Shown one piece after another: positions 6,129 to 30,753 of a stretch of DNA of 64,000 nt (positions within the stretch are counted from its first letter, which is position 1; each line of letters begins with the position of its first letter). A model generated the notes under the pieces. That model ran no database searches and was not told the DNA's origin. It was given only the letters and a program-made list of their open reading frames with translations. The DNA is from Gammaproteobacteria bacterium (lineage in GTDB: Bacteria > Pseudomonadota > Gammaproteobacteria > SZUA-229), in assembly GCA_016744065.1 (NCBI GenBank), contig JADGFA010000020.1:4930-68929 (forward strand). The letters are read 5' to 3'. Made by a program: the position numbers and the translations under genes.

Positions 6129-9100
6129 ATGGTTTTGTTTGCAATAAATATAAGATTTATATTTTTATCTCTAGTTATAGGTCTTATACCTGCATATAGC
6201 TCCGCATCAATAGATATTAGCGTTGATGTAACCGGCACTGACAGGGGGGCATCTAGCGCCGCCAGCAAGGTTTTTGTAGAACGCATTGAACTTAGTTTCC
6301 CTAATAACCGCGCATCGCAAACGGTTAATTTAAACAGCAAAAAATTATATGCCAGAGCAAAATTTAAATACCTGGGTAATGGCCCATTAATTGTTCGCTG
6401 GAAGGTGGATGGTCGTGTTATTTCACAAAGCTCCGAAATTTTAACCTTTGGCAAAGAAGTTGAAATTCGTTCAGATAAAAATAAAACCTTTTTACCTACT
6501 TATCAACGTGGTTCCCATGTTGTTACTTTAGAGTTGCGTAATAGTAGTGGCTTAATTGATGTAACAGTACCCACTATCAAATACTTTGTAGCCGATGGTG
6601 TAGCGGGGCTGGAAACGGATACACCATTAAGGCTAATGTATCCTTCTGCAGCACAGGTCGATCCAGCCAAAGTTTATTTTCGTTGGCAGGGTCAGTCCTT
6701 ATTTAAAGCTTACTCTATTGAAGTGCAGCGCATAGCCAGCAAAACGGTCAGCGCAGCAACACTTATAAAGGCCATCAGTGATATTGATGTTTATTCCCCT
6801 ACAGATAAAACACGCTCAGAGTTTGTAGCCGCTGATTATCGTTGGCGGGTTAAGGGTATATATCAGGGTAAGAAATTAAAACCCTTAACATCTAAGTGGG
6901 CAAATTTTAGTGTGTCTAATGATGCATTATCTGGTGGCTTATTTATTCGACAGATTAGTGCAGAAACATCCATTTCTGATACAGGTTTATCTGCACAGTC
7001 TTTGCAGATAAAGCAGCAAATTATAAATAATTCACAGCGATTAATATCCCCTCAACATGTGGTTTCTCAGGGCAATATTACAGCGGGAAGTGGTTATCAA
7101 TTAAATATTGAGTTGCAGAACTCAGGCTTTATTGATGCGAATAATGCCGCAGTAGAAGTGCATGATCACTCAGGGTTAATAGGTCGATATCCAGTGACTG
7201 CAGCGGTTAATAATAATGTATCTGTTTTAATTTCGTTAGATGCAGATAGTAACAACCAGATCAGTTATGAAAATTTAAATATTATTTTATTAAATAATAA
7301 CCATGTTATAGATGAAGGTGCAATTAACTTAACCATCAGTCCTGAGTTACGTTTAGATGCACTAGATTTTGATGAAATAAATACTCAGCTAGGCGAAGTA
7401 GTTGCCATTGCTAACCCTTGTGGTAGTACATCTCCTGCGCATAATTTAGCTTTTAGTCGTATGGTTTCTGCACGATCACTACAATCTACACAATCTGTAT
7501 TAGACACGGGATCTTTTACCTTTGTAAAAAATCAGAATATAGAGTTCACAGCTTACTTAAAAGATAAAGGCCTGGGCAACTGGTTTGCATCATCACGCAA
7601 TAATTGCGGGATTTCACCCTTATCGCCTTTTGATCGTAGAGCATTAAACGATGAAATTGATGACTTACTGGCATTAGTTCAGCAATGTTATTCAGAGCAT
7701 ACAGGTAATAACCCTGATAAAAGCTGTAAGAACCAGATCAATGCATTAAGTGCAGCTCAGGAGCAACGTAATCAGGATGATATTTATAATGGTAATGCTT
7801 TTCATCTACAGTTTATTGCACATCCTTTAGACCAGTATGGCCAGCTATCAGGTGAGCCGATTGAAATCGGTCAGGTTACAGTTAATAAAAATAATGATGG
7901 TTTAGTAAAAAGTCCTTTCTGGAAAGTTCCTGAATCAGGTCAATATAAAATAACGTTAAATGACATTAGCGAACCGGTTGATTTGTTTGCAACCAATATC
8001 AATGGTCTGCCTAAATATATACATGCAGGTGGATTTGTTTTAGAGCTGGATCAAGTACATTCAAGCTCTGATATAACGAATATGAATCCGCGCCAGGCCA
8101 GTATTAATGGTGTGGCTTATACCCACTGGGCAGGTGATAGCTCACAACAAAGGTTATTACTGGATTTAGATAATGTATCCGTCACAATGCAGGCAAATCC
8201 GCTACATGGGGTTTTAAGTGGGGGTGAACTTAATTTAAAAGAAAACCAGTCAATTACATTGGCGTTAAAAGATGTATCCATGCAATTAAACCAGTTGCAA
8301 TTAAATATTAGCGGCGCAATAGCTGATCTGGCATATAAAATGCCGGGTTATAACCCCAGTATGTTTTCTAATATAACTTCATATTCGTTCACTAAAGGTG
8401 GAAAAGGTGAAGTAATACAAAATTCTATACCCAATAATGGCAACATTAAATTTCAGCAGTTGAAAATATTTAATGGCGGTGAATTTGTTGCACGTTATGA
8501 TTTTGACAATAGTTGGGCTGATACACGTTTAAATAATGATGATTTAGCACTTCGTTTAAAAGGTAGCACGCTAGTTATTGATGCCTCAAAGCATTTTAGT
8601 TTTACTGACTACACCAGTGAAGAAGAGTTTACTGGTATGGGATTTTATAATGCACTTGTACGGCTTAAAGTAAATAACTCAAATGGATTGTTTAGCTTAG
8701 TTGATGCAGAGCATGGGTTTATTTATGGCCGAGCTAACTGGTTAAATTATTCAGAAAACAATGTAAGTGGTGAAAATATTGAAGTGGTTTCAGCAGTGAA
8801 TGTTGCTGATTTTTTTAATCAGACAGTTGCTACTGAATTTGAGTTATTGCAGCCATTTGGCTTTAAGTTAAAAATAACAGGGGGTGTTTTTAGTCTTGAA
8901 GATTCACAGATTGGTGGACTAGACCTGTCCGGTTCAGTAAATTTACCTGGCAGTAATGATAGCGATGAGAATGCATTGTCCCATGTTATCTCTAATCATG
9001 AGTTTGTTTTTCAGCACTTGCATCGTCGAGCTTCAGCTACCGGTGTGAATTTGTTTAGTACTGAATTAGTCGATGATTCATCAATCAATTTCTCAGTTGG

Positions 9101-18100: not shown

Positions 18101-19982
18101 AAAAAATGGTGTGATGGGTAGCGGTGTGAATAGTTTTATTGTATTGGGAATGCAGGGCAATTCACTTACACCAGAGCAAGCATTAAGTGTGGTTAGCGGC
18201 GTTAGTGTTACTGCCAGTGAAATTGTTGAAAGTTTAACGAGTGCCAATGACCCAACTGCAGTATTTATGCGTATTTTAACGGGTAATGTAAAACAGGCAG
18301 ATATGTTGCCACCCGATCGTATGCTGGGAAGTGGACAGGCTTATGCTATTCCTAACGCCATTTTGGCAATATTGGGGCAAGTACGTAAAGTCGTTAAACC
18401 CTTACCTTCGCCTGACGCATATGCATCAGATAATACCTGGGGCTATTTAAAAACTGTGCCATTTATGAACTGGAATAACAGCTCAGCACAATTATCTGAT
18501 GCGGGCCATTATGCAGAAGATATGAATGAAATGATTGGTATGGCCAGTGGTTTTAATGCGGCAGGTGCTGCTAACCAGGGGACAGAAGTCGTACAGAAAG
18601 TCATGATAGCAGGAGCTGATATTGCACGTTTAGGCATTACAGGTATAGCTCCATTGATTGACCCCGATCCGAACAATCATCAGGCTGTGGCGGCAATTCA
18701 ACAACGTGCACTGTTTGACACATTGGCAGGTGATACACCGGGTTTCTCAGGTGTATCCGGCGGTTTACAACGTGAGTGGTTTATTGAAAACCCCAGTCAG
18801 CCAGGTGATTTAACCTTAGAAATGTATGGCCAACTCGTCTTCCCATTCTTTGGTCGTCATGTAGGCATGATGCAGTTAATCACGCAAGGTGATACGGCAG
18901 TATTAGATTTTCAATCAGCGAACGCAACAGAAGCCATAGGTGATTTTGTTGGTGGACTCACAGGAGGAGTGCATGCTCAGTTCTCAGTGGATGATCATGG
19001 CGCATTAGGCCTGGCATATCAGGGAAATACCAAACTGGAAATATTATCTAACACGATTGCTGAAGGTGCAGCTAGTGGGTTCATCCGTGATTTTAATGTG
19101 CCAGGCAGTGAGAATTTAACGCCTTTGCAATATGCTAAAAAACAGGCGGAAACAATTGATATTTTACAGTGTGCTTCATTAGAAACACAAATTGTTCCAT
19201 TTCCTCTTTCATTAACCGGTGTGGGTGCAACGGCAAATATAGGCGGCTTTATGGAAAAAACTGACCTGGGTGCGACGTTTGGTAGCCGAGTTGGTTTAAG
19301 TGGAAATTTAAATTTTCCAGTGATTACTTCTTTATTAGGTATTACATTGGATGGTGATATTACATCAGCCTATGGTGGCAGTTTAAACCCCGTTACCGGA
19401 CAGGTTGAGTTAAGCAATCAAACATGTGTTAACCCGGATATTAGTTTGACCGTATTTGGGCAGAGCTTTTCACTAACCGGTGTTAATGCTGAAGTGGCGA
19501 GCTTTATTGAAGGTGACTTAACTACGCTTAATCCTGCTGCCGGTATTAAAATGAAAGTAAGTTTAAATAGTGCTGTGGTAACCGCTATTAAAACAAACTT
19601 AGGCTGTTTTAATGAATCATTCGAACCCTTTAAATTGCTCGGTGATTTTGTATCTGATCCGACAGGTACATTAACTGAACAAGGCATTTGTACCGTACTG
19701 GATGCAGCTTCTACGGCGAGTATGTGGGTTGTTCTTAGAAATGAATTCCCGGCTAAAGCACAGATGATTCTCGGTTTTGGTGAGCTTCCCGCTAAGCAAC
19801 GTAACACAGTAGAGCCGTTCTTCATTGCTAATTACTCAATAGGTAATAATGGCAATATTACCCCGGGGTTAATTGAAATTAGTAAGCAGGCCGGTGACTG
19901 GGGCGGTTGGCCGGGATCGAAAAATATAAATATCTGTAATAAACAAATGTGTAACCTGAGTCAGTTTGAGGCTTTGCAGTAG
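6129..19982 (+). CDS. Giant secreted protein (4617 aa), function unknown
   Basis: Single uninterrupted 13.85 kb ORF. N-terminal Sec signal (FIFLSLVIGLIPAYSSASID). Beta-rich N-terminal ~1400 aa (Ig/CARDB-like composition). ~2000-aa L/Q/N/A/E-rich helical core. Internal Gly/Ala-rich hydrophobic segment (GLGAGADIVKATLAGV...VAVAVAVTGGTAGLGA). G/T/S-rich beta-like C-terminal ~900 aa. No RTX nonapeptides, cadherin, YD or obvious tandem repeats. AGGA sits directly before the ATG, so the true start may be the TTG two codons downstream. Confidence 0.9.
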   Translation: MVLFAINIRFIFLSLVIGLIPAYSSASIDISVDVTGTDRGASSAASKVFVERIELSFPNNRASQTVNLNSKKLYARAKFKYLGNGPLIVRWKVDGRVISQSSEILTFGKEVEIRSDKNKTFLPTYQRGSHVVTLELRNSSGLIDVTVPTIKYFVADGVAGLETDTPLRLMYPSAAQVDPAKVYFRWQGQSLFKAYSIEVQRIASKTVSAATLIKAISDIDVYSPTDKTRSEFVAADYRWRVKGIYQGKKLKPLTSKWANFSVSNDALSGGLFIRQISAETSISDTGLSAQSLQIKQQIINNSQRLISPQHVVSQGNITAGSGYQLNIELQNSGFIDANNAAVEVHDHSGLIGRYPVTAAVNNNVSVLISLDADSNNQISYENLNIILLNNNHVIDEGAINLTISPELRLDALDFDEINTQLGEVVAIANPCGSTSPAHNLAFSRMVSARSLQSTQSVLDTGSFTFVKNQNIEFTAYLKDKGLGNWFASSRNNCGISPLSPFDRRALNDEIDDLLALVQQCYSEHTGNNPDKSCKNQINALSAAQEQRNQDDIYNGNAFHLQFIAHPLDQYGQLSGEPIEIGQVTVNKNNDGLVKSPFWKVPESGQYKITLNDISEPVDLFATNINGLPKYIHAGGFVLELDQVHSSSDITNMNPRQASINGVAYTHWAGDSSQQRLLLDLDNVSVTMQANPLHGVLSGGELNLKENQSITLALKDVSMQLNQLQLNISGAIADLAYKMPGYNPSMFSNITSYSFTKGGKGEVIQNSIPNNGNIKFQQLKIFNGGEFVARYDFDNSWADTRLNNDDLALRLKGSTLVIDASKHFSFTDYTSEEEFTGMGFYNALVRLKVNNSNGLFSLVDAEHGFIYGRANWLNYSENNVSGENIEVVSAVNVADFFNQTVATEFELLQPFGFKLKITGGVFSLEDSQIGGLDLSGSVNLPGSNDSDENALSHVISNHEFVFQHLHRRASATGVNLFSTELVDDSSINFSVGVFDYQPENITFYIGEEDRPAYHSLNNPALDQLEQWEHEALTHWQESISNVLTERAGLLMSNGRFGKSWQVIASNEDTLDGFHRGAFLVNSQGFTGQWIDAGDTRHYQSNGFDSKVTASWIKFEGSSLVDSYVKGQLIVPYPVDQKFAFTGKLDQEAGFNIPENALQMPSENNWDLSYWKARLHVPEDETTEILTPTYNAITRSELPVVAPSHLYFDSDNQRIKIQGLGLSLLVSDESGGEEFTAIESDIPFNIDTYILPDGQLTETYITPNANIQFIGQAFEPDSHDAIQFLPYLGNHQAPADDVTATSQPLIQIQGNISFSVFGPRTVTIHHTASGAKVPEISRSPNIDEYYGEGDAIRVNAQLKFINTYARSAEGVASQVSQSTGETSENLQAFKAFVGTADLVMMNAVSIKGLAEAGIHQQSVLQRNDDNNGIFVPVAGGEQVAYERLGLGAGADIVKATLAGVRGLETATKLGGAAVSAVAGVDGTGQQVVDLGVDAVNFIESVAVAVAVTGGTAGLGAEEIRHAIDNGLATTDSAIKLLKIICDQQPGCLEDTSLQLDVASLFVRIAGGVSHFEQLTAEEIASISLQMMDTGIPLLRGIPVGQVADVPVNDIKDASLSAAHMVVGAARTLVDNNGRIAFADFLKISRRAVHMASDIRHINGLVQAGDEQKLLDLSISLANESIDMVDAFNNSGGINSVKLNGLTNQMIKLMCSQSENINPLFHKAGLAQANDQFIKPILSFSSQVLEKVETEGLPQNEQQAVSTFLINLLQSLSEGTGSIEGCETSQMQAMPAVQAMLKIAAHSLKPMKGALNNEGKQIAWALDGVSLSIDAVNEFSQQLNGNSFAEAQQIKTLLNNLSATFNNLQTDLSENQNNTDKGRTILRLAKGIPEAFQDLVSTGSPQAAELMDIYIALMRELEILISNAENISANELEGIDLFALPLALINETQDLSMLNQCQKYALSNLTNIISMSREVAKDSPSLSQIVSYSRSIHNNIKSCDQTGFSRNPELEKLMVLLELSASMLNNNQQTALLVKNSLPQLLPLFVDGSVRMLESVQAFIMALPIIDFTQDDLTPVLDDTLIKLLNEAESRSSSSTTKNAIRKARSIISHADFNIIGLTLTRDDTGNVTSMKQIRADGSERFYDFSLGWFKQIYPEGHPDYTGGVDELYSAGSLSYENLSAADKLDMFSENWNAEYANGDIHIRKYKDALGNYIIADNTNGADFVFITDAVSYGATTPERLIQVNGLPDVNTLASDINIESIWRASFYLPDNDSDCPFAGGCIVKFQNSLTYLTIHSVVNSSNLVVYTDSEENMVDSLDEIRPEGQLMLFNGRIISTQNNWNPLWQVNYRSDGVISIKKSDSIEVLNIGDANLIDSISEIINLVTSANNFVYRRVITGNDIWDYRPKDNRAIHSFGNGQWAVYHMDSVLADGIAVPAPEQILPMSELSLQFEGDANGLTENSNLPGVAENMLVDGDIQIPSENPGDVIVITLSGTGAGSVTVGGVPLDIVADNSAASSEPDGMGSRPLQDDGSYIVNGSNGNSSHYIGSNKDNMKIIRSTSASGIRTVDITFCSNPSLSLAMCAGGDESYSANYLVSSNYEIFYLPVRPVITPASGINQAIKHQLWLDVFELERQLKINPSEELLNRLAMLIDNAEDQGLPADELLAQHKHIAATAIKKLIMLQFEYYENNVSNLQTQQGWETNPDSSPAHKIKQLIERGESSGLAISIHANSFKQRFYEMQVLNYRSQLHQLMALNLSASDTSSIEKFKTHISALGDATITMSALGDNEILSTLSEYVCGKLEQVENDIIQPLVSDTNRVVFKSDIKFALDVMAYSDEYGCENVDFIAEVSSLTDRLLVGSESDSLSLQVSSVMLEKMILNQNPETGDYNHSGGLSSDDLIRFYMDKAWHGSNVENLNPPEANQYSLWAQQIQVLDRAIELIKSERIRRSNNGLTVYFYESSVEDLKTSMVNKLKLAWEAEWNRLFTQFRNNKTNKLDDLKGLAVHYELTAQLNAALKLTLSKDLIEVDSQQYLRSKENGSWNSPLNQMKDQQQAWIDEIWLTNNTVDVNKQNLHQQDDVIAFLKNTFPEDRLAGIKVSEKILMERLNQEMDNLEVAIARPDIDDILDDILKPVTDIDKLLSKLQIDSLRQRMDERVQTLLDQAVERVRTSSNDVLNLEIQKIIAIQTKHNGNINGIVNNQNIMSALANACDTAQQAMISQSTVDDLSHIQRFINVANMQESLGVESDQACSLSEAAEVMGHLLQEAFAELVRTQDINQVVPYLNLAEHAVALGNETDIGMAEIGVIIDRHRLQILSCVDTKNCTINNIKDYIKAAAQAQSLGVVDINLGADIDSMTSSSPDTMPGSIQRESDLPDLAQLVKSDASGSNGRSIASNILLSLGASLDLTNAQARKSINSIIARLKSLGSLTIPASFNKPVQINDPLFNAADDLQLKFDTWLEQATQQLADALNEDPGILVTDAVDGSASTIEGLGFTDEEIENILLPALNGNPGDDRIEPGNKYRLAATALEEINDLDGTAFLNLSYRILKNIPDPDITAEGDYRLAGIAQLTTFIFARSGEFVVSAGQVLSEDDIKDLPAANVLFTLLNLPAQQDPLQALATTIETQLISPLINGENASMSCAQGVGPCVLSSGLQIVAISLDSLIVTAQESDLENSDNGTANKQQKLIVYLNQLATKLSAVSNDGSAEAFWFSLGGEGLGISLMMFEQNIDLEKKLALRGLQLANKLFTHSQVDQFVSGLVQPVPMAFYFVRDSSVFLQQQLSENNDQNLPVAMARLVQGAVVDTMQSIDPALASFGNELMGWQLDFADANWELISAGTIEANEWMAALVSDKGVASLNCRVNASTNLSIPPALSLSPFVAAQSLINNRALLGRTENSPKLLADLSADLSNLWFAKIENSHCDNVSVPVITADNDQPTAKLLRQLGSIDMSKGADLAAVQVVGNFGIGAINMLLPETSLSNVMNLVWNGSTEKNGVMGSGVNSFIVLGMQGNSLTPEQALSVVSGVSVTASEIVESLTSANDPTAVFMRILTGNVKQADMLPPDRMLGSGQAYAIPNAILAILGQVRKVVKPLPSPDAYASDNTWGYLKTVPFMNWNNSSAQLSDAGHYAEDMNEMIGMASGFNAAGAANQGTEVVQKVMIAGADIARLGITGIAPLIDPDPNNHQAVAAIQQRALFDTLAGDTPGFSGVSGGLQREWFIENPSQPGDLTLEMYGQLVFPFFGRHVGMMQLITQGDTAVLDFQSANATEAIGDFVGGLTGGVHAQFSVDDHGALGLAYQGNTKLEILSNTIAEGAASGFIRDFNVPGSENLTPLQYAKKQAETIDILQCASLETQIVPFPLSLTGVGATANIGGFMEKTDLGATFGSRVGLSGNLNFPVITSLLGITLDGDITSAYGGSLNPVTGQVELSNQTCVNPDISLTVFGQSFSLTGVNAEVASFIEGDLTTLNPAAGIKMKVSLNSAVVTAIKTNLGCFNESFEPFKLLGDFVSDPTGTLTEQGICTVLDAASTASMWVVLRNEFPAKAQMILGFGELPAKQRNTVEPFFIANYSIGNNGNITPGLIEISKQAGDWGGWPGSKNINICNKQMCNLSQFEALQ

Positions 19983-19984
19983 CA

Positions 19985-21337
19985 ATGAAAAATATGAAAA
20001 AATTAAAGGCTTTAGTTATCCCTGAATATATTTGTCGAAAACTTAATGAGTGTGAATCGAAATCTGTAGAATACGCTAACAGTAGTCTGGTGCTAAATAT
20101 ATTTATACGAAAATTGATATTAGCATCTATTGTTTTTTTTCTACCCATCAATGCATTCGCAGATATCACGGGATTTCAGGTGAAATCCACAGAAAAATCA
20201 ATTTTTTTAAAATGGCATAAAACCGATAAAATAATCAGTTTGTATCGTAAGGCATATCAGTTACCCATAGCATGGGAAAAGCAGAAAAGTAAAAAAATAG
20301 ATAAAGGCGAAAAAATTGCAGAATTAAAATCAGGTGAATCAGAATATATAGACAATAATGTAAAAGAAAATACACGATATTATTATCGACTTCAATATGC
20401 CAACGATAAAAAAACGACTTTATCTTCTGCTCTGGTTTCATCCTTAAAAGACACAACGCCACCTGATGCAGTAAAAATAAATACCGCAAAAGCAGTTAAT
20501 TACAGTAAGCTGATATTAAACTGGAGCGCAAGCAAATCACCCGATGTGGTTGCATATCGAATTTATCGATCACAAAAAAACACATCACCAAAAATAATAA
20601 AAATAGTAAATTTTAATAACAAAAGCAGCAAACAAATAACCACAGAAATACTACAGAAAAAGAATGCTCAAATTGAATATAATTACTTTATTTCCGCAGT
20701 AGATGGCGCGGGAAATGTATCCCCATTATCAAGCTCAATTGCATTGCAGTTACCCGATACAATTGCACCTCAATCACCGTTGCAGTTAACCGCAACACAA
20801 ACAGAAAAGGGTCTGGAGTTACACTGGCTAGCTGATCTTGTAAATGATGTATCTGGTTATGCTGTGTATCGCAAAAGCAGTAATGACGAAACATTTAAAA
20901 AACTAAATAATGACTTGATTTATACACCTGTTTTTATCGATACAGAAATACAGGCTAATAAGAAATATCGTTACCGTGTCGTCGCAATCGATCAATTCGG
21001 AAATGAAAGCAAACCGACTAAAGGTTTGCTGGTTTTTATAAATAATAAATATTTTAGTGTTATTGCTCCAGATAGTTTTCTCATTACTACAACACAACAG
21101 GGAAGACCTGCCTTAAACTGGGCATTAAAAAATAATCAGTCAATTTCAGGTGTTATTGTACTGCGCAGTGAAGGTGATGGTTTTAAGGTGGTTTCTAAAC
21201 TGCTTAAAAATAATGCCTTTGTCGATGATTCCGTTAAGCTTAACCGCAGTTATAAATATAAGCTTAAAACCCTGGCGACCAATGGAGAACAATCGGTTGG
21301 TTCTAATGTGGTGCTGTGGAAAGGGGCAATGAAATGA
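19985..21337 (+). CDS. Secreted protein with ~4 fibronectin type III-like domains
   Basis: 3-nt gap after the giant gene. Internal signal-like segment LILASIVFFLPINAFA, so the true start may be downstream of 19985. FN3 hallmarks: ...LNWSAS..PDVVAYRIYRS..., ...LHWLADLVNDVSGYAVYRK...YRYRVVAIDQFGNES... Confidence 0.65.
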   Translation: MKNMKKLKALVIPEYICRKLNECESKSVEYANSSLVLNIFIRKLILASIVFFLPINAFADITGFQVKSTEKSIFLKWHKTDKIISLYRKAYQLPIAWEKQKSKKIDKGEKIAELKSGESEYIDNNVKENTRYYYRLQYANDKKTTLSSALVSSLKDTTPPDAVKINTAKAVNYSKLILNWSASKSPDVVAYRIYRSQKNTSPKIIKIVNFNNKSSKQITTEILQKKNAQIEYNYFISAVDGAGNVSPLSSSIALQLPDTIAPQSPLQLTATQTEKGLELHWLADLVNDVSGYAVYRKSSNDETFKKLNNDLIYTPVFIDTEIQANKKYRYRVVAIDQFGNESKPTKGLLVFINNKYFSVIAPDSFLITTTQQGRPALNWALKNNQSISGVIVLRSEGDGFKVVSKLLKNNAFVDDSVKLNRSYKYKLKTLATNGEQSVGSNVVLWKGAMK

Positions 21338-22398
21338 AATGGCTTGTTAACCCATCTTCTTCTAGATTCCTGTCTGTTTTATTAGCTATATTATCAAGTG
21401 TATCGCCATTAAAATCTGAAACACTGTTAACTCTGCCTGGGTTTACAGCAACAGCCAACATACAATTAGAGAATAACCCTGATGAAAGCCTGGTTTACGT
21501 TTCTGGCACCGTTAAAAAAATAAATACGCCGTCAGCAGAAAATATAATTGCCCCCAATATAACCGTGCGTTTCTGGCAGCCAGAAAATCCGGGCTCTTAT
21601 GTTACCGCAATAACAAATGAAAATGGTGTGTATACCATTGGTTTAACAGAAGGGGCCTGGCAGGGAGAGGCCTGTGGTTCTGATGCAGCTTACTATCCGT
21701 CAAGCTGGCAAGTGCTGGTGCAGGATAAAAAATTATTACAGTTACAGGCACATGATCAAAAAACAATTGAGCTGGATATGTTAACGCCAAGTAACCTTAT
21801 TAATCAACATAATACGGTAACCCTGACAGGGCGTGGATTTGGCTGTAATGGATCACTGGTTTTTACCTATTCCAATTCAGTTGATATTTGTAACAAGTCT
21901 TCAGATATCGAGTATGACCATGAAGTTATAACGTTAAATGATTTTTCATATCGCACTGATACGCAATTGCGTTTTGCTATGCCAGAGCTTTCAGACGTAC
22001 GCGATGTACACAAACACATTGCTTATGTTCGATACCAGCAGGGTAATTATAAAAGTCGATACATTGGTATTGGTGAAATGGTTTTGGCATCACAGTCCTC
22101 GAATGTGATTCTTTGTCAGGGTGGGCAAGTAGCTAACCAGTCTAATGTTGCCATATTAAACGGCACCCTGGGAATGCAGGGCATTGTCACTCAGATTGGA
22201 GGAACTGCTTTTAATAATGCTGGAGCAGGGGTTGTATCCGGTGTTGTTGGTGATACGCATCTGGGTGGCGGTAATAACCCGCAATTGACAGGCAGTGATT
22301 TTGCATCGGAAATGAGTTTTCAAAATTTAGAAATTGAGGGTGTGTCTGGCATCATGCAGTTTAATGGACAAGTGCCAAATATGGAGTTAAATCAATGA
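21334..22398 (+). CDS. Secreted protein, possible carboxypeptidase-regulatory-like (transthyretin-fold) N-terminal domain
   Basis: Overlaps the preceding stop, suggesting translational coupling. Signal peptide MKWLVNPSSSRFLSVLLAILSSVSP. VSGTVKKI...ITVRFWQPENPGSYVTAITNENGVYTIGL resembles a CarbopepD_reg/Cna-B-like beta-sandwich. Confidence 0.5.
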   Translation: MKWLVNPSSSRFLSVLLAILSSVSPLKSETLLTLPGFTATANIQLENNPDESLVYVSGTVKKINTPSAENIIAPNITVRFWQPENPGSYVTAITNENGVYTIGLTEGAWQGEACGSDAAYYPSSWQVLVQDKKLLQLQAHDQKTIELDMLTPSNLINQHNTVTLTGRGFGCNGSLVFTYSNSVDICNKSSDIEYDHEVITLNDFSYRTDTQLRFAMPELSDVRDVHKHIAYVRYQQGNYKSRYIGIGEMVLASQSSNVILCQGGQVANQSNVAILNGTLGMQGIVTQIGGTAFNNAGAGVVSGVVGDTHLGGGNNPQLTGSDFASEMSFQNLEIEGVSGIMQFNGQVPNMELNQ

Positions 22399-24581
22399 GA
22401 GTACTTTTGTTTTTAGGCTTATCGTATATGATGTTGCCTGTTGTATCTCATGCTGAGATAAAGCAATCAGTTATGCAGGGGCAGCGTGTTGAATTATATC
22501 AGGTTGATGATATTTCTATTCAGTTTGCTAATTTATTTTATCGATTAGAGGGAAGCCAGAAATTTATTCAACAGCCTTTATCAAGAAAGGGTAGTCAATG
22601 GTCTGCACAGCTTAAAGGGCATCAAGTACGTGTTCCTGGTATTGAGTATTATGTTCAACTGACATATAAAAATGGGTCGATAAAAACAGATCCGCCGGCT
22701 CATCCTGAATATAATCCAGAGCGTTTAAGTGTAAATACACTATCTACAGACACAATTCATATTACTAATATGAAAAACAATAAAAATGATAGCATTGAAT
22801 TTATAGTTAATGGTTATGTAGATACTGAAACACGCGTATTTATGGGTGATACTGATATTACAGATATGATGCGCCGTGATAATGATAAATGGACATTAGA
22901 AAATGTAAGTCAGCTATTTGATGGTCCGCAGTCAATTCAGCTAGTTAACACGCAGGGTAATACCATTGCCAAAAGTGCAATAAATATAAGTAATTCTGAT
23001 GAAACGCCCGCTGCTAAAAATGGAGAATTCGTTTTACGCGGTAGTGCCAGTTTTAATATTGGGGGGCAATCGGATGATGATTCAACTACAGATGAATCAT
23101 TAGTCGTTACAGGTAATTTACACATAGAAACAGAATATACTCACAATGATTTTTCTTCTCACTTTTCTGGCGTTGATGTTAATTATGATCATAGTGCCGA
23201 TAAAGAATTCGATTTATCGTCAGGATTTTTATTTACCAATAGTTATAAAAAAACATCACTGGAATTAGGTGATGTGAATGTTAAAGGTACGCCTTTAGTT
23301 CTGTCGGGGTTTTCTCGTCGTGGTTTTGTCGCAGCGACAGAAGGTGAAACATGGAAGGGATCTGTGTTTAATGTAAGAACCAGCACGGTGGATGGATTTG
23401 AATCGGGTATATCATTTGATGACAGGCAAACCTATGGTGCATCGTATGAACAGACAATAGGTGATTCAGGCAATACAAATATTCAGATATCAGCCGTAAG
23501 CGGTGACTTACAACAGCCAGAAACCAGTAATGTAGGGTCTGCAAACACAAATGCACAGGCTGGTGATACATTGGGTTTATTAGTTTCATCAGAGTATGCA
23601 GGTGTCAATATTAATGCGGAGCTAGCAAGTTCTAAATTTGATCTAGATACAAATGATGTCAATAATGCGGTGTCTGATGAGGCCTATGAAGTTCACTTCA
23701 CAAAAAACATTTATGGCTTGGCCTCGTCTTTAGGTTATCAACATTATGGTGCAAATTATGCCACCATTGCAAACCCGAATTTCTCCGGTGATAGAGAGGG
23801 GTTAAATTTATCCTTTGGCAGTAACTGGAAGGCCGTTAGCTGGACAGCTTCACTTTCAAGTATTGAGGATAATGTGGATAATGATCCACTGCGCCCAGTG
23901 GTTACATCTGATAATGCAGGCTTAAGCCTGGATTTTGTTATTGAAAACTGGCCAGCTATTAATATTGGTTTTAATCTAACGAACCAGTCATCTGATAATG
24001 AACCAGATGCAACTGCTGAAGTGGACAATAAAGGCCATGATGTATCATTAGGTTTATCGAATAGTTTTGATGCTTACAACCTGGCCTGGAGCAGTTCTAT
24101 TGGTGAATTAAATAACAAACTGGACGTAACTAATGACAGTGAAACCTCCAGTCATTCTTTAACCATGGGTTATAACTTTGATGCTGCCGATGTTAATTTA
24201 AACCTGTCACAGAATAAAAATGAAACAGATTTTATTCTGACTTCAAATTTAGCTAATCTTTCATTAAATATACCTCTTTTTTCTGACAATGTGGTTTTAA
24301 ATACGCAATTTTCAGCGCAACAGAATGAGGCGGATAATAATTCACAGAATAATGAAATTATTGGCGGCAGTGCCAGAGTTTCCTGGACTTTACACGATAT
24401 TATTATTTTTAAGTCGATGGACTGGGTTAACCCACAGTTTGGTATTAGCTGGACTATGAACAAAACATCAGATCAGATAGATAGCAGTCTGAATGAGTCT
24501 GACAGCACCATTATGTTTGACTTTAGTTTTGGTGCACCAATCAGCTTTGAACAACGTTGGCAGTTTGATGATGAAACTTAA
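22395..24581 (+). CDS. Putative outer-membrane beta-barrel protein (728 aa)
   Basis: 4-nt overlap with the upstream gene. Signal peptide MRVLLFLGLSYMMLPVVSHA. C-terminal ~450 aa made of short alternating hydrophobic/polar strands separated by D/N/S/G-rich loops (LSLDFVIENWPAINIGFNLTN..., SHSLTMGYNFDAADVNLNLSQ...). Ends ...RWQFDDET. Confidence 0.45.
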   Translation: MRVLLFLGLSYMMLPVVSHAEIKQSVMQGQRVELYQVDDISIQFANLFYRLEGSQKFIQQPLSRKGSQWSAQLKGHQVRVPGIEYYVQLTYKNGSIKTDPPAHPEYNPERLSVNTLSTDTIHITNMKNNKNDSIEFIVNGYVDTETRVFMGDTDITDMMRRDNDKWTLENVSQLFDGPQSIQLVNTQGNTIAKSAINISNSDETPAAKNGEFVLRGSASFNIGGQSDDDSTTDESLVVTGNLHIETEYTHNDFSSHFSGVDVNYDHSADKEFDLSSGFLFTNSYKKTSLELGDVNVKGTPLVLSGFSRRGFVAATEGETWKGSVFNVRTSTVDGFESGISFDDRQTYGASYEQTIGDSGNTNIQISAVSGDLQQPETSNVGSANTNAQAGDTLGLLVSSEYAGVNINAELASSKFDLDTNDVNNAVSDEAYEVHFTKNIYGLASSLGYQHYGANYATIANPNFSGDREGLNLSFGSNWKAVSWTASLSSIEDNVDNDPLRPVVTSDNAGLSLDFVIENWPAINIGFNLTNQSSDNEPDATAEVDNKGHDVSLGLSNSFDAYNLAWSSSIGELNNKLDVTNDSETSSHSLTMGYNFDAADVNLNLSQNKNETDFILTSNLANLSLNIPLFSDNVVLNTQFSAQQNEADNNSQNNEIIGGSARVSWTLHDIIIFKSMDWVNPQFGISWTMNKTSDQIDSSLNESDSTIMFDFSFGAPISFEQRWQFDDET

Positions 24582-24605: not shown

Positions 24606-27251
24606 ATGAGTTTAATAAATAAACTAACAATTATGTTTTTAATACTGATTATCAGTGCCTGTTCATCTGAGTCATCAGAAAATGACTCAAAAGAAGGCCT
24701 GGCAAGTATAAAAGTCAGTATACCTGGTCTGGAAAATAATAAATTTATCAATAAAACCAGTTTGGGTGAATCATCACAGGCAATAGATAATGCCAGTGTT
24801 CCGGCTGAAGTTGATTCAATTATAATAGATGTTCTTGATAACCGATCTAATGTTTTAGATGCTGCCGATATACTGGCCAATAATGGTGAAGTCACTTTAA
24901 ACATTGTAGCGGGCAAAAATTACACCGTCAGGGGCAGGGCTTTTGCAAATAATGAAGTTTTATTTTCAGGTACAAGTGAAATTGATTCAATTGTGACGGG
25001 TGATCGAATTTCAGTAAGTCTTTCATTACTCGATCAGATACAACTATCATTGACGGCTTTTGCTAATACACCTGTAGGCACCGCTGAAACTGACGTATCA
25101 TTTAACTTAAACGGTTTAAATGATATTTCAATAAACTGGTACATTAATGGCATTCTGGGAGGCAACGCTCAATTTGGCACTATTAATACAGCTGGTCAAT
25201 ATACAGCACCATCGATACTTCCACTTAACACAACAATAACGGTGACCGCTGAACCTGTTAATGCACCTTCATTTGCTCAGTCGTTTACTTTTCAGTTGTT
25301 ACCCGCTATTAATATTCCCCCGGTTGCTAATGCTGGAGCTGATGTAATGGTAAATGATGGAATCACAGTTAACCTTAATGGTAATGCAAGTACTGATATT
25401 GATGGCACTATTAGTACCTATAGCTGGCTAAGAATATCCGGTGATTTTAATCCCGTATTAAATGTTGTTAATTCCACGACAGTTAGTTTTACCTCTCCAG
25501 CCATGCAGTTCGGTGGAGCAGCAACCTTCAGGCTAACCGTAACAGATAATGAGGGTGCAACTGACACAGATGATGTAATCATTACAGTTAATGGCACGGA
25601 TCAACCTTTGCTTGCCAATGCGGGGCCCGATCAAACGGTAAATGAAGGTGATTCAGGCATTACACTAACAGCTAGTGCCAGTACCGATCTGGATAATACA
25701 ATTACAGGCTATCTATGGACACAGCTGTCAGGTACTTCTGCTTTATTATCCAGTACATCTGCTGTCTCACCAACTTTTGTAGCACCTGATGTGAGTATTG
25801 ATGAAAATTTAGTTTTTCAGTTAACGGTCACCAATGATGCTGGTTTGCAAGATACAGATACTGTTACTATCAGGGTTAATAACACAGTAGTGACTACCGA
25901 GAAAATTTATTTTTCTGCACTTTCAACAGGGTTTAATCAAAATATATGGGTAACTGATGGCACTGCTCCGGGCACATTTCAGTTAGCATCCGTGGCGGTT
26001 GAAAATAATGAATTTGCACGTTTTGAAACTCTCAATAATGATTTGTATTTTCAGGGAAATGATGGTGTTAACGGACGTAAATTGTGGCGCACCGATGGTA
26101 CATTAGTTGGTACTGAGTTAGTGGTATTAGATGATGGCTCTGTAACGAATGTAGACCCTAATAATTTTGCAGTACTGGGAGACTTATTATTGCTTGGGGC
26201 TAATACCTCTTTTAATGGTTCATTTAATATACCTGAATATATTTCACTTAATAGCACTAATGATGTAATAACGCCTTTATTTAATAGTCGGCCCACAGGT
26301 GGTTATGGTGTGCATAATAATGAGCTTGGAAAAATGGATGGCTTTATTTATTTTAACGATACGACCTTTACACCCTTAGTTAGCACCAACCTCTATCGTA
26401 CCGATGGCATTAATGCTGCTACGAGTATTGCAACTGGTTTTTTTGATACTCGTATGACAGAGTTTACCGAGTTCAATAATGAACTGTATTTTGTTGTTGG
26501 TCAAAAAGAGCTCTGGAAAACAGACGGTACAAATTTAGGTACTGTTTTATTAAAAACGTTTAGTGGTCATGTCGGCTATTCCTCATCATCGAGCTTAAGC
26601 GGGGTTTATAATGGCGGCATGATCGTATTTAATAATCAGTTATTTTTTGTTGCTGATGATGGGCAGGGAAGTGAGCTTTGGGTCAGTAATGGTGTAAGTG
26701 GCAATAGCCCGGATACTCTACTGATTAAGGACCTGGATAATAATACCAGCACATCTTCCTACCCTTATGAATTTAGAGTGGTTAATGGTAATTTGCTTTT
26801 CTTTAGTGCAGAAGGTGATGCCAGTACCGATGGGTTATGGATTACTGATGGCACATCGGTTGGTACTACACGGCTTCGGGCATTATCTGTAGGCAATACG
26901 GACAGCAGTTATTTTACTCAGGGTTACGATACAGCCGTACCAACTGTTGTAAATATTAGTAGTCAGGATTTATTATTTTTTGTCGCAAATGATGGCATAA
27001 CAGGTAATGAACTATGGGTAACAGATGGAACTGTGGGCGGTACTAATCTGGTAAGTGATATCAATAGTAGTAGTCACAGTTTTCCTGCTATATTTAAGGC
27101 AGGTAATAATAAATTGATATTTTCTGCACAAGATGATGATGGGCGTGCAAAACTATGGCAAACCGATGGTACCGCAATCGGTACCTCTTTAATACTTGAT
27201 ATATGCCCTGGCTGTTTTGGGCAAGGTGCATTTTTCAGGCCTGCAGGATAA
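24606..27251 (+). CDS. Lipoprotein with tandem PKD/Big-like domains and C-terminal ELWxxDGT repeats (881 aa)
   Basis: Lipobox LIISAC. Repeated PVANAGADVMVNDGITVNLNGNASTDIDGTISTYSW / LANAGPDQTVNEGDSGITLTASASTDLDNTITGYLW modules. Then >=7 repeats of the type ELWVTDGT, KLWRTDGT, ELWKTDGT, GLWITDGT, KLWQTDGT (the ELWxxDGT beta-propeller-like repeat). Confidence 0.7.
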   Translation: MSLINKLTIMFLILIISACSSESSENDSKEGLASIKVSIPGLENNKFINKTSLGESSQAIDNASVPAEVDSIIIDVLDNRSNVLDAADILANNGEVTLNIVAGKNYTVRGRAFANNEVLFSGTSEIDSIVTGDRISVSLSLLDQIQLSLTAFANTPVGTAETDVSFNLNGLNDISINWYINGILGGNAQFGTINTAGQYTAPSILPLNTTITVTAEPVNAPSFAQSFTFQLLPAINIPPVANAGADVMVNDGITVNLNGNASTDIDGTISTYSWLRISGDFNPVLNVVNSTTVSFTSPAMQFGGAATFRLTVTDNEGATDTDDVIITVNGTDQPLLANAGPDQTVNEGDSGITLTASASTDLDNTITGYLWTQLSGTSALLSSTSAVSPTFVAPDVSIDENLVFQLTVTNDAGLQDTDTVTIRVNNTVVTTEKIYFSALSTGFNQNIWVTDGTAPGTFQLASVAVENNEFARFETLNNDLYFQGNDGVNGRKLWRTDGTLVGTELVVLDDGSVTNVDPNNFAVLGDLLLLGANTSFNGSFNIPEYISLNSTNDVITPLFNSRPTGGYGVHNNELGKMDGFIYFNDTTFTPLVSTNLYRTDGINAATSIATGFFDTRMTEFTEFNNELYFVVGQKELWKTDGTNLGTVLLKTFSGHVGYSSSSSLSGVYNGGMIVFNNQLFFVADDGQGSELWVSNGVSGNSPDTLLIKDLDNNTSTSSYPYEFRVVNGNLLFFSAEGDASTDGLWITDGTSVGTTRLRALSVGNTDSSYFTQGYDTAVPTVVNISSQDLLFFVANDGITGNELWVTDGTVGGTNLVSDINSSSHSFPAIFKAGNNKLIFSAQDDDGRAKLWQTDGTAIGTSLILDICPGCFGQGAFFRPAG

Positions 27252-27253: not shown

Positions 27254-27895
27254 ATGACACCGTATTCACTGACGATAGTAGAAGATGAAACAATAGTAAG
27301 GGAGCGTCTGGTTAAATTAATTACCGAGCACTCTCAATTTAATTTATTGGGTGCAGCGGCTGATGTGGCAGGTGGTATTGCTGATTTAATAAAATACAGT
27401 CCAGATATTCTATTAACCGATTTAGGTTTACCCGACGGTTCGGGGATTGAAATTATTAAAGCAATTGAAATTAATCACCTTGATACTGAAGCTATGGTTA
27501 TTTCCGGATTTCAGGATGAGCATAATGTATTTAATGCACTGCAGGCGGGTGCCAGCGCTTATATTCATAAACACGATAAAAACCAGAAAATAACCGATGC
27601 TATTTTATCTATGATGCAGGGGGGGGCGCCTATAAGCCCGGTTATTGCGCGATTGATGCTACAGAAATTTCAAAAACCACAGCCTGTTAAACAATTACCA
27701 GAAGCATTAACTGAACGACAGATAAAAATATTAAAGCTGGTAAGTCAGGGGTTTTCATCAAAAGAAATAGCTGAAAAACTTAATATTAGTTATTACACAG
27801 TGACCACGCATATTAAGAATATTTACAATAAGTTGCAGGTTAATAGTCGGACTGAAGCCTTGCATGAGGCGGTTAAACTGGGTTTGCTGGAGTAG
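27254..27895 (+). CDS. Response regulator, NarL/FixJ (LuxR-type HTH) family
   Basis: REC domain (IVEDE...LLTDLGLPDGSG). C-terminal LuxR HTH (LTERQIKILKLVSQGFSSKEIAEKLNISYYTVTTHIKNIYNKL). ATG at 27254 chosen over the 27203 track start, which overlaps the upstream gene. Confidence 0.85.
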   Translation: MTPYSLTIVEDETIVRERLVKLITEHSQFNLLGAAADVAGGIADLIKYSPDILLTDLGLPDGSGIEIIKAIEINHLDTEAMVISGFQDEHNVFNALQAGASAYIHKHDKNQKITDAILSMMQGGAPISPVIARLMLQKFQKPQPVKQLPEALTERQIKILKLVSQGFSSKEIAEKLNISYYTVTTHIKNIYNKLQVNSRTEALHEAVKLGLLE

Positions 27896-28019: not shown

Positions 28020-28730
28020 ATGAAATCATTTAAAAAGAATTTAATACTTATCGTTAGTTTATTGTTTTTGATTCCAAACGCCCAGGCAACTGAGCTACTG
28101 CAAGGTGTAGAATATAACAGCGGTGAAAATCTTACTGCATCAAAAGCAGGTATTAGCTTTACGCTTCCTCAGGACTGGTCAGGCTCTGTATCTACAGAAG
28201 GTGATTTCATCATGAAATCAAACCAGCATTACGGTATGTTAATCCTGACGTCATCGCAGACCAGTGATAGACACGCTATGGCTGGCAACCTTACAAGAGA
28301 GTCTCTGGATATTGGCTCAGGCTTTGTTTTTTACCCTTCAGGTAAAGCAAATATTGAAACAAATGGGCTTACCCAGAACTATCAGGGTAAAGATCCAACA
28401 AGTGGAGCCGCCTTATCAGGCCATTTACATATACTTGAAGGAAAGTATGGCCAGTCAGTCACTATTGTCATTATGGGAACCCTGTCTGACAGTAATTATA
28501 ATAACCAGTTATTACATAACACATTGAATACAGTGAGTTTTTTTGATCAGAATGTAGGAATGCAACAAACTCAGGGAAAGCAGCAGAAAGAGGCTATAAA
28601 GCCGGCTCAACAACGTCGACCAGTTATTGAAAACTGGAGTGGAGGCGGCTATGTGCAAGGCATCAATAATGAAGGGCGTAACTGTTCCTATGTGACTGTT
28701 CAGGGAATGAGCATGAGAAGTTGCGACTAG
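28020..28730 (+). CDS. Secreted protein of unknown function (236 aa)
   Basis: Signal peptide LILIVSLLFLIPNAQA. No recognisable catalytic motif. Sits between the RR and HK genes. Confidence 0.45.
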   Translation: MKSFKKNLILIVSLLFLIPNAQATELLQGVEYNSGENLTASKAGISFTLPQDWSGSVSTEGDFIMKSNQHYGMLILTSSQTSDRHAMAGNLTRESLDIGSGFVFYPSGKANIETNGLTQNYQGKDPTSGAALSGHLHILEGKYGQSVTIVIMGTLSDSNYNNQLLHNTLNTVSFFDQNVGMQQTQGKQQKEAIKPAQQRRPVIENWSGGGYVQGINNEGRNCSYVTVQGMSMRSCD

Positions 28731-28887: not shown

Positions 28888-30753
28888 ATGTGGTTGAGTA
28901 ATACTAAAAGCAGTGCATTTATATTTTTATTTGTTTACTGGTTAGCTTTTAATTTTCTGGTGCTTCATACACCTTTCACCGTTTTTAACTCACCCGATGT
29001 GAGTGCAATTAATTATGTGCAGTATATAAACAGTAATGCACAATCCCCTGACGAAATAAAACAACAAAACTGGCAAACCATATCGCTACCAGATGACTGG
29101 TATAACAATCATAAAAACATAAAACAGGTATGGTACAGAGCTAACTTAACTTTGGATAAAGACAGTGAAGAGCAGGTCTGGGCTGCTTATCTGCCCTCAG
29201 TAACCCATAATGCGGCTGTATATATTAATGGATTCTGGGTAGGACAGGGCGGGCAGTTTACTGATCCGGTTTCCCGCAATCAAAATAAACCTTTGTTATT
29301 TAGCTTTTCATCAAAATTATTACATCAGGGCAACAATCAAATAGATATAAGAGTTAAGGCCGCATTTTTTGAGCAGGGTTTAATGGATGAGTTTTACCTT
29401 GCTCCCGAGTCCCAGTTACATGATGCCTATGTATGGAAAAAAATCATACGTGTTGACCTGGTTCGCTGGATGACGATGGTTATGTATGTACTGTCATTAA
29501 TTGTTTTTGCATTCTGGTTAGCTCGTCCGCAGGACAGTATTTACGGCCTGTTTGCATTAGAACTGTTTATCTGGGCAACACATAATTTAAATTTATTTGT
29601 ATCAGATATTCCTGTATCAGTTAGTATCTGGGAAGCCATGACCATAAGCACACTTGGCTGGACGGTGGTTGCGATGATATTTTTTAATCATCGATTTGTT
29701 GGTGAGAAAAATATTATTGTAGAAAAAGTAATTGTAGTTTTTTCTGTACTCGGTATAGGTATATTTTTTCTTCCTGATATAAGTAGCATTATGCATATTG
29801 GCTATAGCATATGGGATGCATTCGTTATGATTTTTGGTATTTATGCCATTGTTCATCTTATAAGGGTATATCAGCATAAGGGTGATTCTGATGTGTTTTT
29901 GATGTTAGTGGTGGGCATACCTATACTGGTTTTTGGTTTTCATGATATCTTGATGATCAATCACTTCATTGATAGACGTGACGGCTTGACTATTCAGTTT
30001 AGCGTTATACCTTCAGTAATATTATTTAGCTGGTTTCTTGTGCGTCGATTTGTACAGTCAATTAATAAAGCAGAACACCTGGCTGAAACATTAGAGCAAC
30101 GAGTCAATGAAAAGCAGCAGGAATTACAGTTACAGTACGAAAAATTAAAATCGATGGAAAAAGACAGTATTCTTTCAGAAGAACGGGAACGCATTATGCG
30201 TGATATGCACGATGGTATCGGAGGGCAGTTAGTCTCTGTTGTTATGATGTTACAGGAACAGACAGGCGAGGTATTTACCCATGTATGTGAAAAAGTACAA
30301 CACAGTTTAACTGATTTACGTTTTGTAATTGACTCGTTAGATCCCTTATTAAGTGACCTTCCTACGCTGTTAGGGATGATGCGTATACGCCTGGTTGACC
30401 AACTGGAAGCGGCAAACATTGAGCTGGAATGGGCCGTTACTGAACTACCCGAAGTGGCAAACATGAGCCCTCGACGTAGTTTGCATATTATGCGAATAGT
30501 GCAGGAAGCGATAACCAATAGCATAAAACATTCAGGTTCTGAAAAAATGACATTAGCTACAGGCGTAATAAACGATAATATTTATATAGATGTAATAGAT
30601 TATGGAAAAGGATTTAAATCGTCTGAAAAAAATGAGGGCAGGGGCATTAAAAACATGCATTACCGTGCTCAGCAATTAAAAGCAGGCCTGGAATTTAATT
30701 CATTAACTAATGGGGTGTCTATTCGTTTATTGCTTGGTATTAATACTAAATAA
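28888..30753 (+). CDS. Sensor histidine kinase, 7TMR-DISM type with HisKA_3/HATPase_c
   Basis: N-terminal signal + periplasmic domain (7TMR-DISMED2-like). Seven TM helices (residues ~200-400). H-box ERERIMRDMHDGIGGQL typical of HisKA_3 kinases that partner NarL-type regulators. C-terminal HATPase G-boxes (VIDYGKGF). Confidence 0.8.
   Translation: MWLSNTKSSAFIFLFVYWLAFNFLVLHTPFTVFNSPDVSAINYVQYINSNAQSPDEIKQQNWQTISLPDDWYNNHKNIKQVWYRANLTLDKDSEEQVWAAYLPSVTHNAAVYINGFWVGQGGQFTDPVSRNQNKPLLFSFSSKLLHQGNNQIDIRVKAAFFEQGLMDEFYLAPESQLHDAYVWKKIIRVDLVRWMTMVMYVLSLIVFAFWLARPQDSIYGLFALELFIWATHNLNLFVSDIPVSVSIWEAMTISTLGWTVVAMIFFNHRFVGEKNIIVEKVIVVFSVLGIGIFFLPDISSIMHIGYSIWDAFVMIFGIYAIVHLIRVYQHKGDSDVFLMLVVGIPILVFGFHDILMINHFIDRRDGLTIQFSVIPSVILFSWFLVRRFVQSINKAEHLAETLEQRVNEKQQELQLQYEKLKSMEKDSILSEERERIMRDMHDGIGGQLVSVVMMLQEQTGEVFTHVCEKVQHSLTDLRFVIDSLDPLLSDLPTLLGMMRIRLVDQLEAANIELEWAVTELPEVANMSPRRSLHIMRIVQEAITNSIKHSGSEKMTLATGVINDNIYIDVIDYGKGFKSSEKNEGRGIKNMHYRAQQLKAGLEFNSLTNGVSIRLLLGINTK

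Follow-up and report, generated by a model that had tools for sequence, protein, structure and literature searches.

The gene at positions 24606..27251 (+) of a 64,000-nucleotide (nt) stretch of contig JADGFA010000020.1 from a Gammaproteobacteria bacterium (the whole stretch is called the window hereafter) encodes an 881-amino acid (aa) protein that joins PKD domains to a C-terminal array of ELWxxDGT repeats. Taken alone, this protein, the ELW lipoprotein, is a well-supported ELWxxDGT/PKD lipoprotein and is ordinary at the level of annotation. What raises it above ordinary annotation is a very rare, strictly conserved gene cluster of uncultured Gammaproteobacteria, in which the ELWxxDGT repeat gains a fixed genetic context comprising a new family of large predicted outer-membrane β-barrels and a cargo that can be a 4,600-aa protein of wholly unknown sequence. 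Three families in the cluster (the giant protein, p360, and the barrel p728) have no Pfam model and are confined to uncultured Gammaproteobacteria. The ELW lipoprotein is tentatively viewed here as a binding arm on a stalk, belonging to a surface complex centred on the barrel, a role that is given slightly less than an even chance.

Domains and Lipid Anchor of the ELW Lipoprotein

The open reading frame (ORF) runs exactly from 24606 to 27251 and is preceded by a candidate ribosome-binding site, GGAAG, located 6 nt 5′ of the ATG. The encoded N-terminus, MSLINKLTIMFLILIISAC, contains a type II signal peptide (24606..24662 (+)) with the lipobox ISAC (within LILIISAC), Cys19, and a serine at position +2. 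A hydrophobic segment is followed by a match to the pattern [LVI][ASTVI][GAS]C, and the lipobox cysteine is aligned in all 19 of the N-terminally complete orthologs. The protein is a predicted signal peptidase II (SPase II) lipoprotein, and the presence of serine rather than aspartate at +2 points to sorting to the outer membrane.

Two K319L-like PKD domains (aa 236–330 and 331–427; 25311..25886 (+)) were identified with Pfam family PF22352, which matched aa 236–327 and 339–424 at an E-value of 3.6e-34 and 117.1 bits (cutoff 27), with both domains above the cutoff. PF18911 (PKD_4; E 3.4e-11, 43.5 bits vs. a cutoff of 27) and PF17963 (Big_9; E 1.1e-6) matched as well. The C-terminal array was recovered in seven stretches by the NCBIfam model TIGR04534 (ELWxxDGT_rpt; E 8e-65, 214.7 bits, curated cutoff 65), and a regular-expression search placed canonical motifs of the [LI]WxTDGT type at seven sites: aa 447, 493, 636, 691, 744, 803, and 850. 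A degenerate motif, LYRTDGI, lies near aa 596. Spacing from unit to unit is 40–59 aa, with a first interval of 46 aa and a 103-aa gap across a fully degenerate unit. Judged by their E-values, these domain matches are far beyond chance. An earlier note on this DNA had proposed the PKD modules, the ELWxxDGT array, and the lipid anchor from the sequence alone; all three were borne out, the first two by the profile searches and the last, as a predicted anchor, by the lipobox and its aligned cysteine. The same note missed ~205 aa (aa 30–235) that separate the lipobox from the first PKD domain and hold two further β-sandwich domains.

No second ORF with the ELW motif was found in the 64-kb window. 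A terminator-like hairpin, GGTACCGCAATCGGTACC, lies at 27168–27185 (+), inside the 3′ coding end of the ELW gene and 66 nt before its stop codon. It consists of 7 bp, five of them GC pairs, with a weak T-run, and falls on the GT..GT codons of the final repeat. Its occurrence is probably coincidental; attenuation of read-through into the downstream regulator gene could be an effect.

A Predicted β-Propeller on a Stalk of Variable Length

An AlphaFold2 (AF2) model was built from an 86-sequence alignment, and its secondary structure was assigned by DSSP. The model is all-β, with a mean predicted local distance difference test score (pLDDT) of 86.5, and contains four β-sandwich domains followed by nine four-stranded units. 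The first two β-sandwiches, N1 (aa 30–142) and N2 (aa 143–235), are encoded by 24693..25310 (+); they are family-specific and have no Pfam match. From aa 434 onward, 35 short strands form nine units of four, the last unit having three, and pLDDT is mostly >90. These repeated antiparallel units make up the ELWxxDGT region (aa 430–870; 25893..27215 (+)), whose nine units of 46–59 aa comprise seven canonical and two degenerate repeats. The latter are the fully degenerate unit at approximately aa 527–579, which brings the number to nine, and a second at approximately aa 580–625; TIGR04534 calls seven repeats where the model contains nine units. Because four antiparallel strands per ~48-aa unit are the signature of a propeller blade, the region is probably a β-propeller, and the AF2 model is consistent with the propeller-like fold suggested in the earlier note. 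The C-terminal tail (...GAFFRPAG; 27216..27248 (+)), in which F876 is invariant, would possibly provide a ring-closing strand through its FF pair. No solved structure for the ELWxxDGT repeat was detectable by sequence or profile search of the PDB: a single-sequence search with the lipoprotein found nothing, and a profile search with the ELW alignment matched the type IX secretion system (T9SS) sorting domain of some members and left the repeats unmatched.

Approximately 20 full-length orthologs, all from metagenomes or metagenome-assembled genomes, are 44–58% identical to the ELW lipoprotein; two of them carry the NCBI name [quoted passage not shown]. They share a fixed plan of lipobox, conserved N-terminal region, PKD modules, ELW region, and ...FF..G tail. 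N1 and N2 are conserved across all orthologs and include the invariant motif G197-Y199-P202...F223-A224. The number of PKD modules ranges from two to five, at a pitch of ~96 aa. Because their copy number varies while both ends of the protein stay constant, the PKD modules behave as a spacer.

Beyond this locus, a search with only the ELW region yielded more than 2,288 proteins at E≤1e-5, and many of these are named "ELWxxDGT repeat protein" by the Joint Genome Institute (JGI). The repeat period in this wider family has its mode at 48 aa. Members have between 5 and 15 repeats, most often 8 or ~12, a spread that is compatible with a closed ring as well as with an open solenoid. A hand count of 120 ELW-domain homologs listed found the T9SS C-terminal sorting domain (PF18962) in 41 and RTX repeats (PF00353) in 17. 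Because of these fusions, the module can be regarded as a widespread part of extracellular proteins whose export signals are interchangeable. Far from being rare, the motif is a common one that has gone unstudied: the description "rarely annotated" in the earlier note does not fit a repeat named by both NCBIfam and JGI, and what remains of it is that neither "ELWxxDGT" nor "TIGR04534" is mentioned in the searched literature.

The Adjacent Gene Encodes a Predicted Large Outer-Membrane Barrel

The gene that ends 24 nt upstream of the ELW gene (22395..24581 (+)) encodes p728, a 728-aa protein with a signal peptide. Its sequence matched 33 clusters in a search of 5.8 billion, none of them with a Pfam domain. 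The AF2 model (pLDDT 78.9) contains two N-terminal β-sandwich domains followed by 26–28 long antiparallel strands, and the orthologs end in WQF or WKF, a C-terminal β-signal. The p728 of the window carries four extra residues, DDET, past ...RWQF; its orthologs in loci L003 and L005 end at the phenylalanine, and the 33-member consensus ends in ...WQF. All of the top Foldseek matches of the model were outer-membrane barrels. The best superposition was with MtrB (6r2q_B; template modeling (TM) scores 0.45/0.49), the best E-value was obtained with LptD (8h1r_D; 1.2e-8), and the FimD and PapC ushers came next (TM 0.33–0.35). MtrB itself has been likened to other outer-membrane secretion proteins, with LptD (26 strands) and FimD (24 strands) being of comparable size (PMC7198977). 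On the strength of the model, p728 represents a new family of predicted outer-membrane barrels with ~26 strands.

A scan of the genome collection with the barrel alignment returned a single locus (L006). The corresponding metagenome scan returned ~60 loci (L009–L069) that match only the ~80-aa N-terminal β-sandwich domain of p728 (aa 12–96, 22–40% identity), many of them from the same few JGI sample series. Among 33 of these loci examined, most encode proteins of 207–262 aa with Pro/Thr-rich C-termini, and the matches in L009, L011, and L013 lie inside longer ORFs of 1,542–2,956 codons. The small proteins appear to form a separate uncharacterised family. L009–L069 were dropped as barrel-cluster loci, most of their proteins being unrelated ones that share only the N-terminal domain.

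Conservation of the Gene Cluster

Eleven distinct loci with an ELW ortholog, the window included, were compared. Seven of them (the window, L003/L004, L005, L006, L073, L074, and L075) have a colinear layout in which the giant gene is followed by genes for an fn3 protein, a ~350-aa protein, the barrel, and the ELW lipoprotein. Two others (L001 with L070; L007) are rearranged, with the ELW gene divergent from the genes for the giant, the fn3 protein, a 344-aa protein, and the barrel. Identities to the window proteins are 36–40% for the giant, 34–39% for the fn3 protein p450, 35–47% for p360, 45–55% for the barrel, and 44–50% for the ELW lipoprotein. The giant and ELW genes are thus linked in 9 of the 11 loci, and the linkage is real and survives rearrangement, because it is kept in the divergent layout.

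The remaining two loci, a JGI 3300072015 contig and L071, lack the giant. Here the order is barrel (840–857 aa), a protein of 815 or 831 aa, seven small proteins, ELW lipoprotein, and regulator; the JGI contig continues with a 242-aa gene and then the kinase, and L071 ends inside the regulator gene. Because unrelated genes (BacA and VanZ) lie upstream of the barrel in the JGI 3300072015 contig, the giant gene is truly absent from that locus. The ELW protein of L071 (P0007) is 49% identical to that of the window, and the ELW protein of the giant-containing L003 (P0009) is 50% identical. The barrel is in the same cluster as the ELW gene in 10 of the 11 loci and can be inferred in the eleventh.

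These comparisons bear on the proposal, made in the earlier note, that the lipoprotein is a receptor or anchor for the giant. The co-occurrence of the two genes agrees with it, but the proposal is too specific: because two giant-less clusters keep the ELW lipoprotein and the barrel, the conserved partner of the lipoprotein cannot be the 4,400-aa body of the giant. As judged from gene content, the constant core of the cluster is the predicted barrel, a p167-type Ig-like domain, a cargo that starts with a shared module, and the ELW lipoprotein, and the giant 4,400-aa body is dispensable.

The Giant Protein and a Shared N-Terminal Module

The giant protein (6129..19982 (+)) has 4,617 aa, a signal peptide, and a non-repetitive sequence, in which database searches found no known domain. 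Among 1.84 billion representatives, only 18 match its C-terminal 1,200 aa, all of them proteins of 4,188–4,854 aa or fragments. On reading the sequence, the middle ~2,700 aa give the impression of being largely helical and the ends beta-rich; no computed prediction underlies this impression.

The N-terminal ~240 aa of the giant form a module common to p167 and to the ~830-aa protein of the giant-less clusters. The small lipoprotein p167 (5481..5984 (+); lipobox LSAC), whose gene precedes that of the giant by 144 nt, matches giant aa 23–154 with 29% identity (E 2e-13), and the 831-aa protein of a giant-less cluster shares giant aa 26–242 (29% identity, E 1.6e-20). Sequence p167 also aligns with the N-terminal domain of the L071 barrel (38% identity, E 2.5e-22), the domain being fused to the barrel in the giant-less clusters. 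On the short contigs L072 and L008, the barrel gene is followed by a p167-like gene and then by a gene for a protein with the giant N-terminal module, at which point the contig ends. Because the same domain is either fused to the barrel or encoded beside it, p167 can be tied to the system.

The Two-Component System Downstream of the ELW Gene

The ELW gene is followed after 2 nt by a gene for a NarL/LuxR-type response regulator (27254..27895 (+); PF00072 and PF00196). The mechanically called regulator ORF starts at 27203 and overlaps the ELW gene by 49 nt, and both the orthologs and the receiver-domain alignment point to the ATG at 27254. No convincing terminator was found between the two genes. 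Because the regulator begins 2 nt after the stop codon with no convincing terminator between, the ELW gene is not the last gene of its transcription unit, contrary to the earlier note, which had placed it at the end of the giant-protein operon. Next come p236 (28020..28730 (+)), an exported protein encoded between regulator and kinase and present in some loci only, and a sensor histidine kinase (28888..30753 (+)) with HisKA_3 and HATPase_c domains, multiple membrane spans, and a GH2_N-like extracytoplasmic domain of the 7TMR-DISM type. A 242-aa gene occupies the p236 position in the P0018 locus, and L003 has none.

A LuxR-type regulator gene lies directly 3′ of the ELW gene in 8 of the 11 loci. 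Its orthologs in L003, L006, L007, and L071 are 69–75% identical to that of the window, and in L074, L075, and the JGI 3300072015 contig the gene next after ELW carries the Response_reg+GerE pair. Kinase orthologs are 57–60% identical in L003, L006, and L007. In the rearranged locus L007, the regulator (70%) and the kinase (58%) stay with the ELW gene, whose strand is opposite to that of the giant operon. A hybrid kinase of another kind is found in L005, and no two-component system adjoins the ELW gene in L001 and L073. In L001, the usual regulator slot is occupied by a gene at 12728–13522 (+), after the ELW ortholog, whose protein ends in ...VPAPSVLFLLAGGLAGLTYFRRKLA, a terminus that resembles a PEP-CTERM-type sorting signal. 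The GH2_N-like match of the window kinase (E 1.6e-4) falls below the cutoff, and the L007 ortholog has a weak match to PF07695 (7TMR-DISM_7TM); these kinase domain matches suggest a carbohydrate-type signal. The regulator pattern is compatible with local regulation or with a signalling role of the lipoprotein.

Proposed Role of the ELW Lipoprotein and Alternatives

As a stalked binding arm, the lipoprotein would be tethered by its N-terminal acyl anchor and would present a nine-unit head on a stalk of four Ig-like domains (N1, N2, and the variable PKD spacers). It would be sorted to the outer membrane, given the lack of aspartate at +2, and displayed at the surface beside the barrel. Surface display is suggested here because other proteins carry their ELW modules outside the cell, and the large barrel next to the lipoprotein might give it passage or a place to dock, by analogy with MtrCAB or Slam systems. 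Held on a stalk of ~16 nm whose length is adjustable, the propeller could serve as a protein- or ligand-binding platform, whose target may be a conserved part of the cargo–barrel assembly or an external ligand. The barrel would be an outer-membrane conduit or anchor for the cargo, whether the ~4,600-aa giant or the ~830-aa protein, and the N-terminal module of the cargo may dock onto the N-terminal β-sandwich domains of the barrel.

Several points weigh against this arrangement. A Foldseek search of the PDB with the full-length model of the lipoprotein returned generic tandem-Ig chains alone, with TM ≤0.22, and was uninformative on the ELW region. Conservation is even across the domains of the lipoprotein (majority-residue frequency 0.61–0.71), and no interface stands out. 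Contacts among the cluster proteins are hypothetical. A proteobacterial lipoprotein reaches the cell surface only by a dedicated route, and the serine at +2 argues for no more than outer-membrane sorting, and that solely by the E. coli rule. The adjacency of ELW and regulator genes, together with the regulator pair that travels with the ELW gene in L007, fits a signalling role equally well.

One alternative is a periplasm-facing sensor. Here the outer membrane would hold the lipoprotein by its inner leaflet, the ~16-nm stalk would span the periplasm, and the propeller could contact the extracytoplasmic domain of the adjacent kinase to report the state of the barrel or cargo, much as RcsF or NlpE do. 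The periplasmic side is the default orientation of proteobacterial lipoproteins, the regulator gene starts 2 nt after the ELW stop codon and directly follows it in most loci, and in L007 the regulator and kinase have stayed with the ELW gene and not with the giant-barrel operon. Against this, in other proteins the ELW module is joined to signals for extracellular export (the T9SS C-terminal domain and RTX), and the ELW gene stays with the barrel in L001 and L073, where no two-component system adjoins it, and in L005, with its different hybrid kinase; a regulator beside the operon it controls is also common and requires no physical link. A sensor of this kind is considered improbable, as is, to a somewhat greater degree, a role in substrate capture within an uptake locus. 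In the latter scheme the cluster would work in the manner of a polysaccharide-utilisation locus: the barrel would take up a polymer, whole or in fragments, the ELW lipoprotein would be a surface binder resembling the surface glycan-binding proteins (SGBPs) of Bacteroides, and the kinase would sense the substrate with its carbohydrate-binding-like domain. The anchor, tandem Ig domains, and C-terminal binding domain do recall SGBP-B, for which 6e57 was a Foldseek match (E 3.3e-10), and the 7TMR-DISM-type kinase has its below-cutoff, GH2_N-like sugar-binding match. The SGBP match is, however, a generic Ig-chain similarity (TM 0.08–0.17), no locus contains a glycoside hydrolase, lyase, TonB-dependent plug, or SusD-like gene, and a secreted 4,600-aa protein without an enzyme domain fits nowhere in the scheme.

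It is less likely still, and would be surprising, that the propeller merely tethers the giant by binding the body of the 4,617-aa protein and keeping it on the cell. Adjacency or a shared operon of the giant and ELW genes in nine loci, the rearranged ones included, would agree with such a tether, but the two giant-less clusters keep an ELW lipoprotein that is equally similar to that of the window (P0007 at 49% vs. P0009 at 50%), and the protein that replaces the giant shares just its first ~240 aa. A more far-reaching reading, on balance unlikely, is that the cluster constitutes a previously undescribed outer-membrane display or secretion system, in which the ~26-strand barrels would export or anchor proteins of ~830 to ~4,700 aa that start with a p167-type Ig-like module and the ELW lipoprotein would be an obligatory surface co-receptor or holdfast. 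If that were true, it would provide the first functional context for the widespread, unstudied ELWxxDGT repeat, and, if the barrel is a conduit for the cargo, a new route for very large proteins to the Gram-negative surface.

Other Genes of the Operon and Window

Two further genes lie between those of the giant and the barrel. The first encodes p450 (19985..21337 (+)), an exported or membrane-anchored protein that contains an fn3 domain (PF00041, E 5.7e-12) and has the 34–39% identical orthologs noted above in L003, L005, L006, and L070. Its start codon is uncertain, with ~40 residues ahead of the hydrophobic segment. The second encodes p360 (21316..22398 (+)), an exported, conserved cluster member without a known domain. 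The real start of p360 is probably the ATG at 21334 and not the listed GTG at 21316, as starting at the ATG makes the signal peptide cleaner and reduces the overlap with p450 from 22 to 4 nt. Spacing in the operon is 2 nt between the giant and p450, −22 nt between p450 and p360 (−4 nt from the internal ATG), and −4 nt between p360 and p728. All five structural proteins carry export signals, and sequence searches of Pfam, NCBIfam, and the PDB gave no match for the giant, p360, or p728.

The flanks of the window (1117–4905, 34504–35652, and 52858–59694) encode an ABC transporter, NnrS, TelA, a spermidine-synthase-like protein, and a minus-strand operon for an Mrp/Mnh-type cation antiporter; ORFs at 36329–37990 and 48408–50258 have no Pfam match. 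An origin of the cluster from a mobile element or phage was considered and dropped, given these ordinary chromosomal flanks and the lack of mobile-element signatures around the cluster.

Comparison with Known Systems

The ~26-strand barrel p728 invites comparison with MtrCAB and LptDE, since MtrB and LptD are its best structural matches. Each of the two has a lipoprotein as its partner, the surface-located MtrC for MtrB and the plug LptE for LptD, and MtrB also sheathes a protein, MtrA, in its lumen. The MtrAB complex is described in PMC7198977. Identity between p728 and either barrel is only 8–10%, there is no Pfam match to the LptD/OstA or MtrB families, and p728 has two N-terminal β-sandwich domains of its own. 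A porin-cytochrome reading of the MtrCAB type was rejected after zero CXXCH motifs were found in all nine cluster proteins.

An outer-membrane barrel gene adjoining a lipoprotein gene is an arrangement that the cluster shares with Slam, or type XI, systems. Slam combines a TPR domain with a 14-strand DUF560 barrel, and the presence of such a barrel gene beside a lipoprotein gene predicts barrel-dependent surface display (PMC5449769). Membership in the Slam/type XI secretion system group was rejected: p728 has no DUF560 or TPR match, ~26 strands, and β-sandwich N-domains, and the ELW protein has no TbpB-like fold.

The logic of the cluster is similar to that of two-partner secretion and chaperone-usher systems, in which a very large exoprotein or Ig-like subunits with a conserved N-terminal module are paired with a dedicated large barrel. 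Two-partner secretion proper was set aside, as neither the giant nor p728 has a TPS domain, POTRA, or ShlB match in Pfam or NCBIfam at E≤0.01; the TpsB barrel has 16 strands, and p728 is larger. The chaperone-usher assignment was likewise discarded, there being no PF00577 or PF00345 match, no C-terminal usher domains, and similarity to FimD and PapC at the level of fold only (TM 0.33–0.35).

In its lipid anchor, tandem Ig-like stalk, and distal binding domain, the ELW lipoprotein is similar to Bacteroides SGBP-B, and 6e57 is among its Foldseek matches. It differs in phylum, in the lack of a SusC/SusD partner, and in having the ELW array as its distal domain, and the TM scores are only 0.08–0.17. 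A SusC/SusD locus was excluded by the lack of TonB_dep_Rec, Plug, or SusD matches in the cluster and related loci. The Slam, porin-cytochrome, two-partner, chaperone-usher, and SusC/SusD systems thus serve as analogies of function and no more. With the PKD proteins (PF22352, PF18911), the lipoprotein has in common two domains above threshold, but PKD is here a variable spacer of two to five copies and not the defining functional part. The ELWxxDGT family (TIGR04534) provides the counterpart for the C-terminal array, as the ELW lipoprotein is exported, all-β, and built of ~48-aa tandem units with the L-W-x-[TS]-D-G-T motif; whereas most members of that family use the T9SS C-terminal domain or RTX, this one is a predicted lipoprotein with its own N1–N2 region and a fixed gene cluster.

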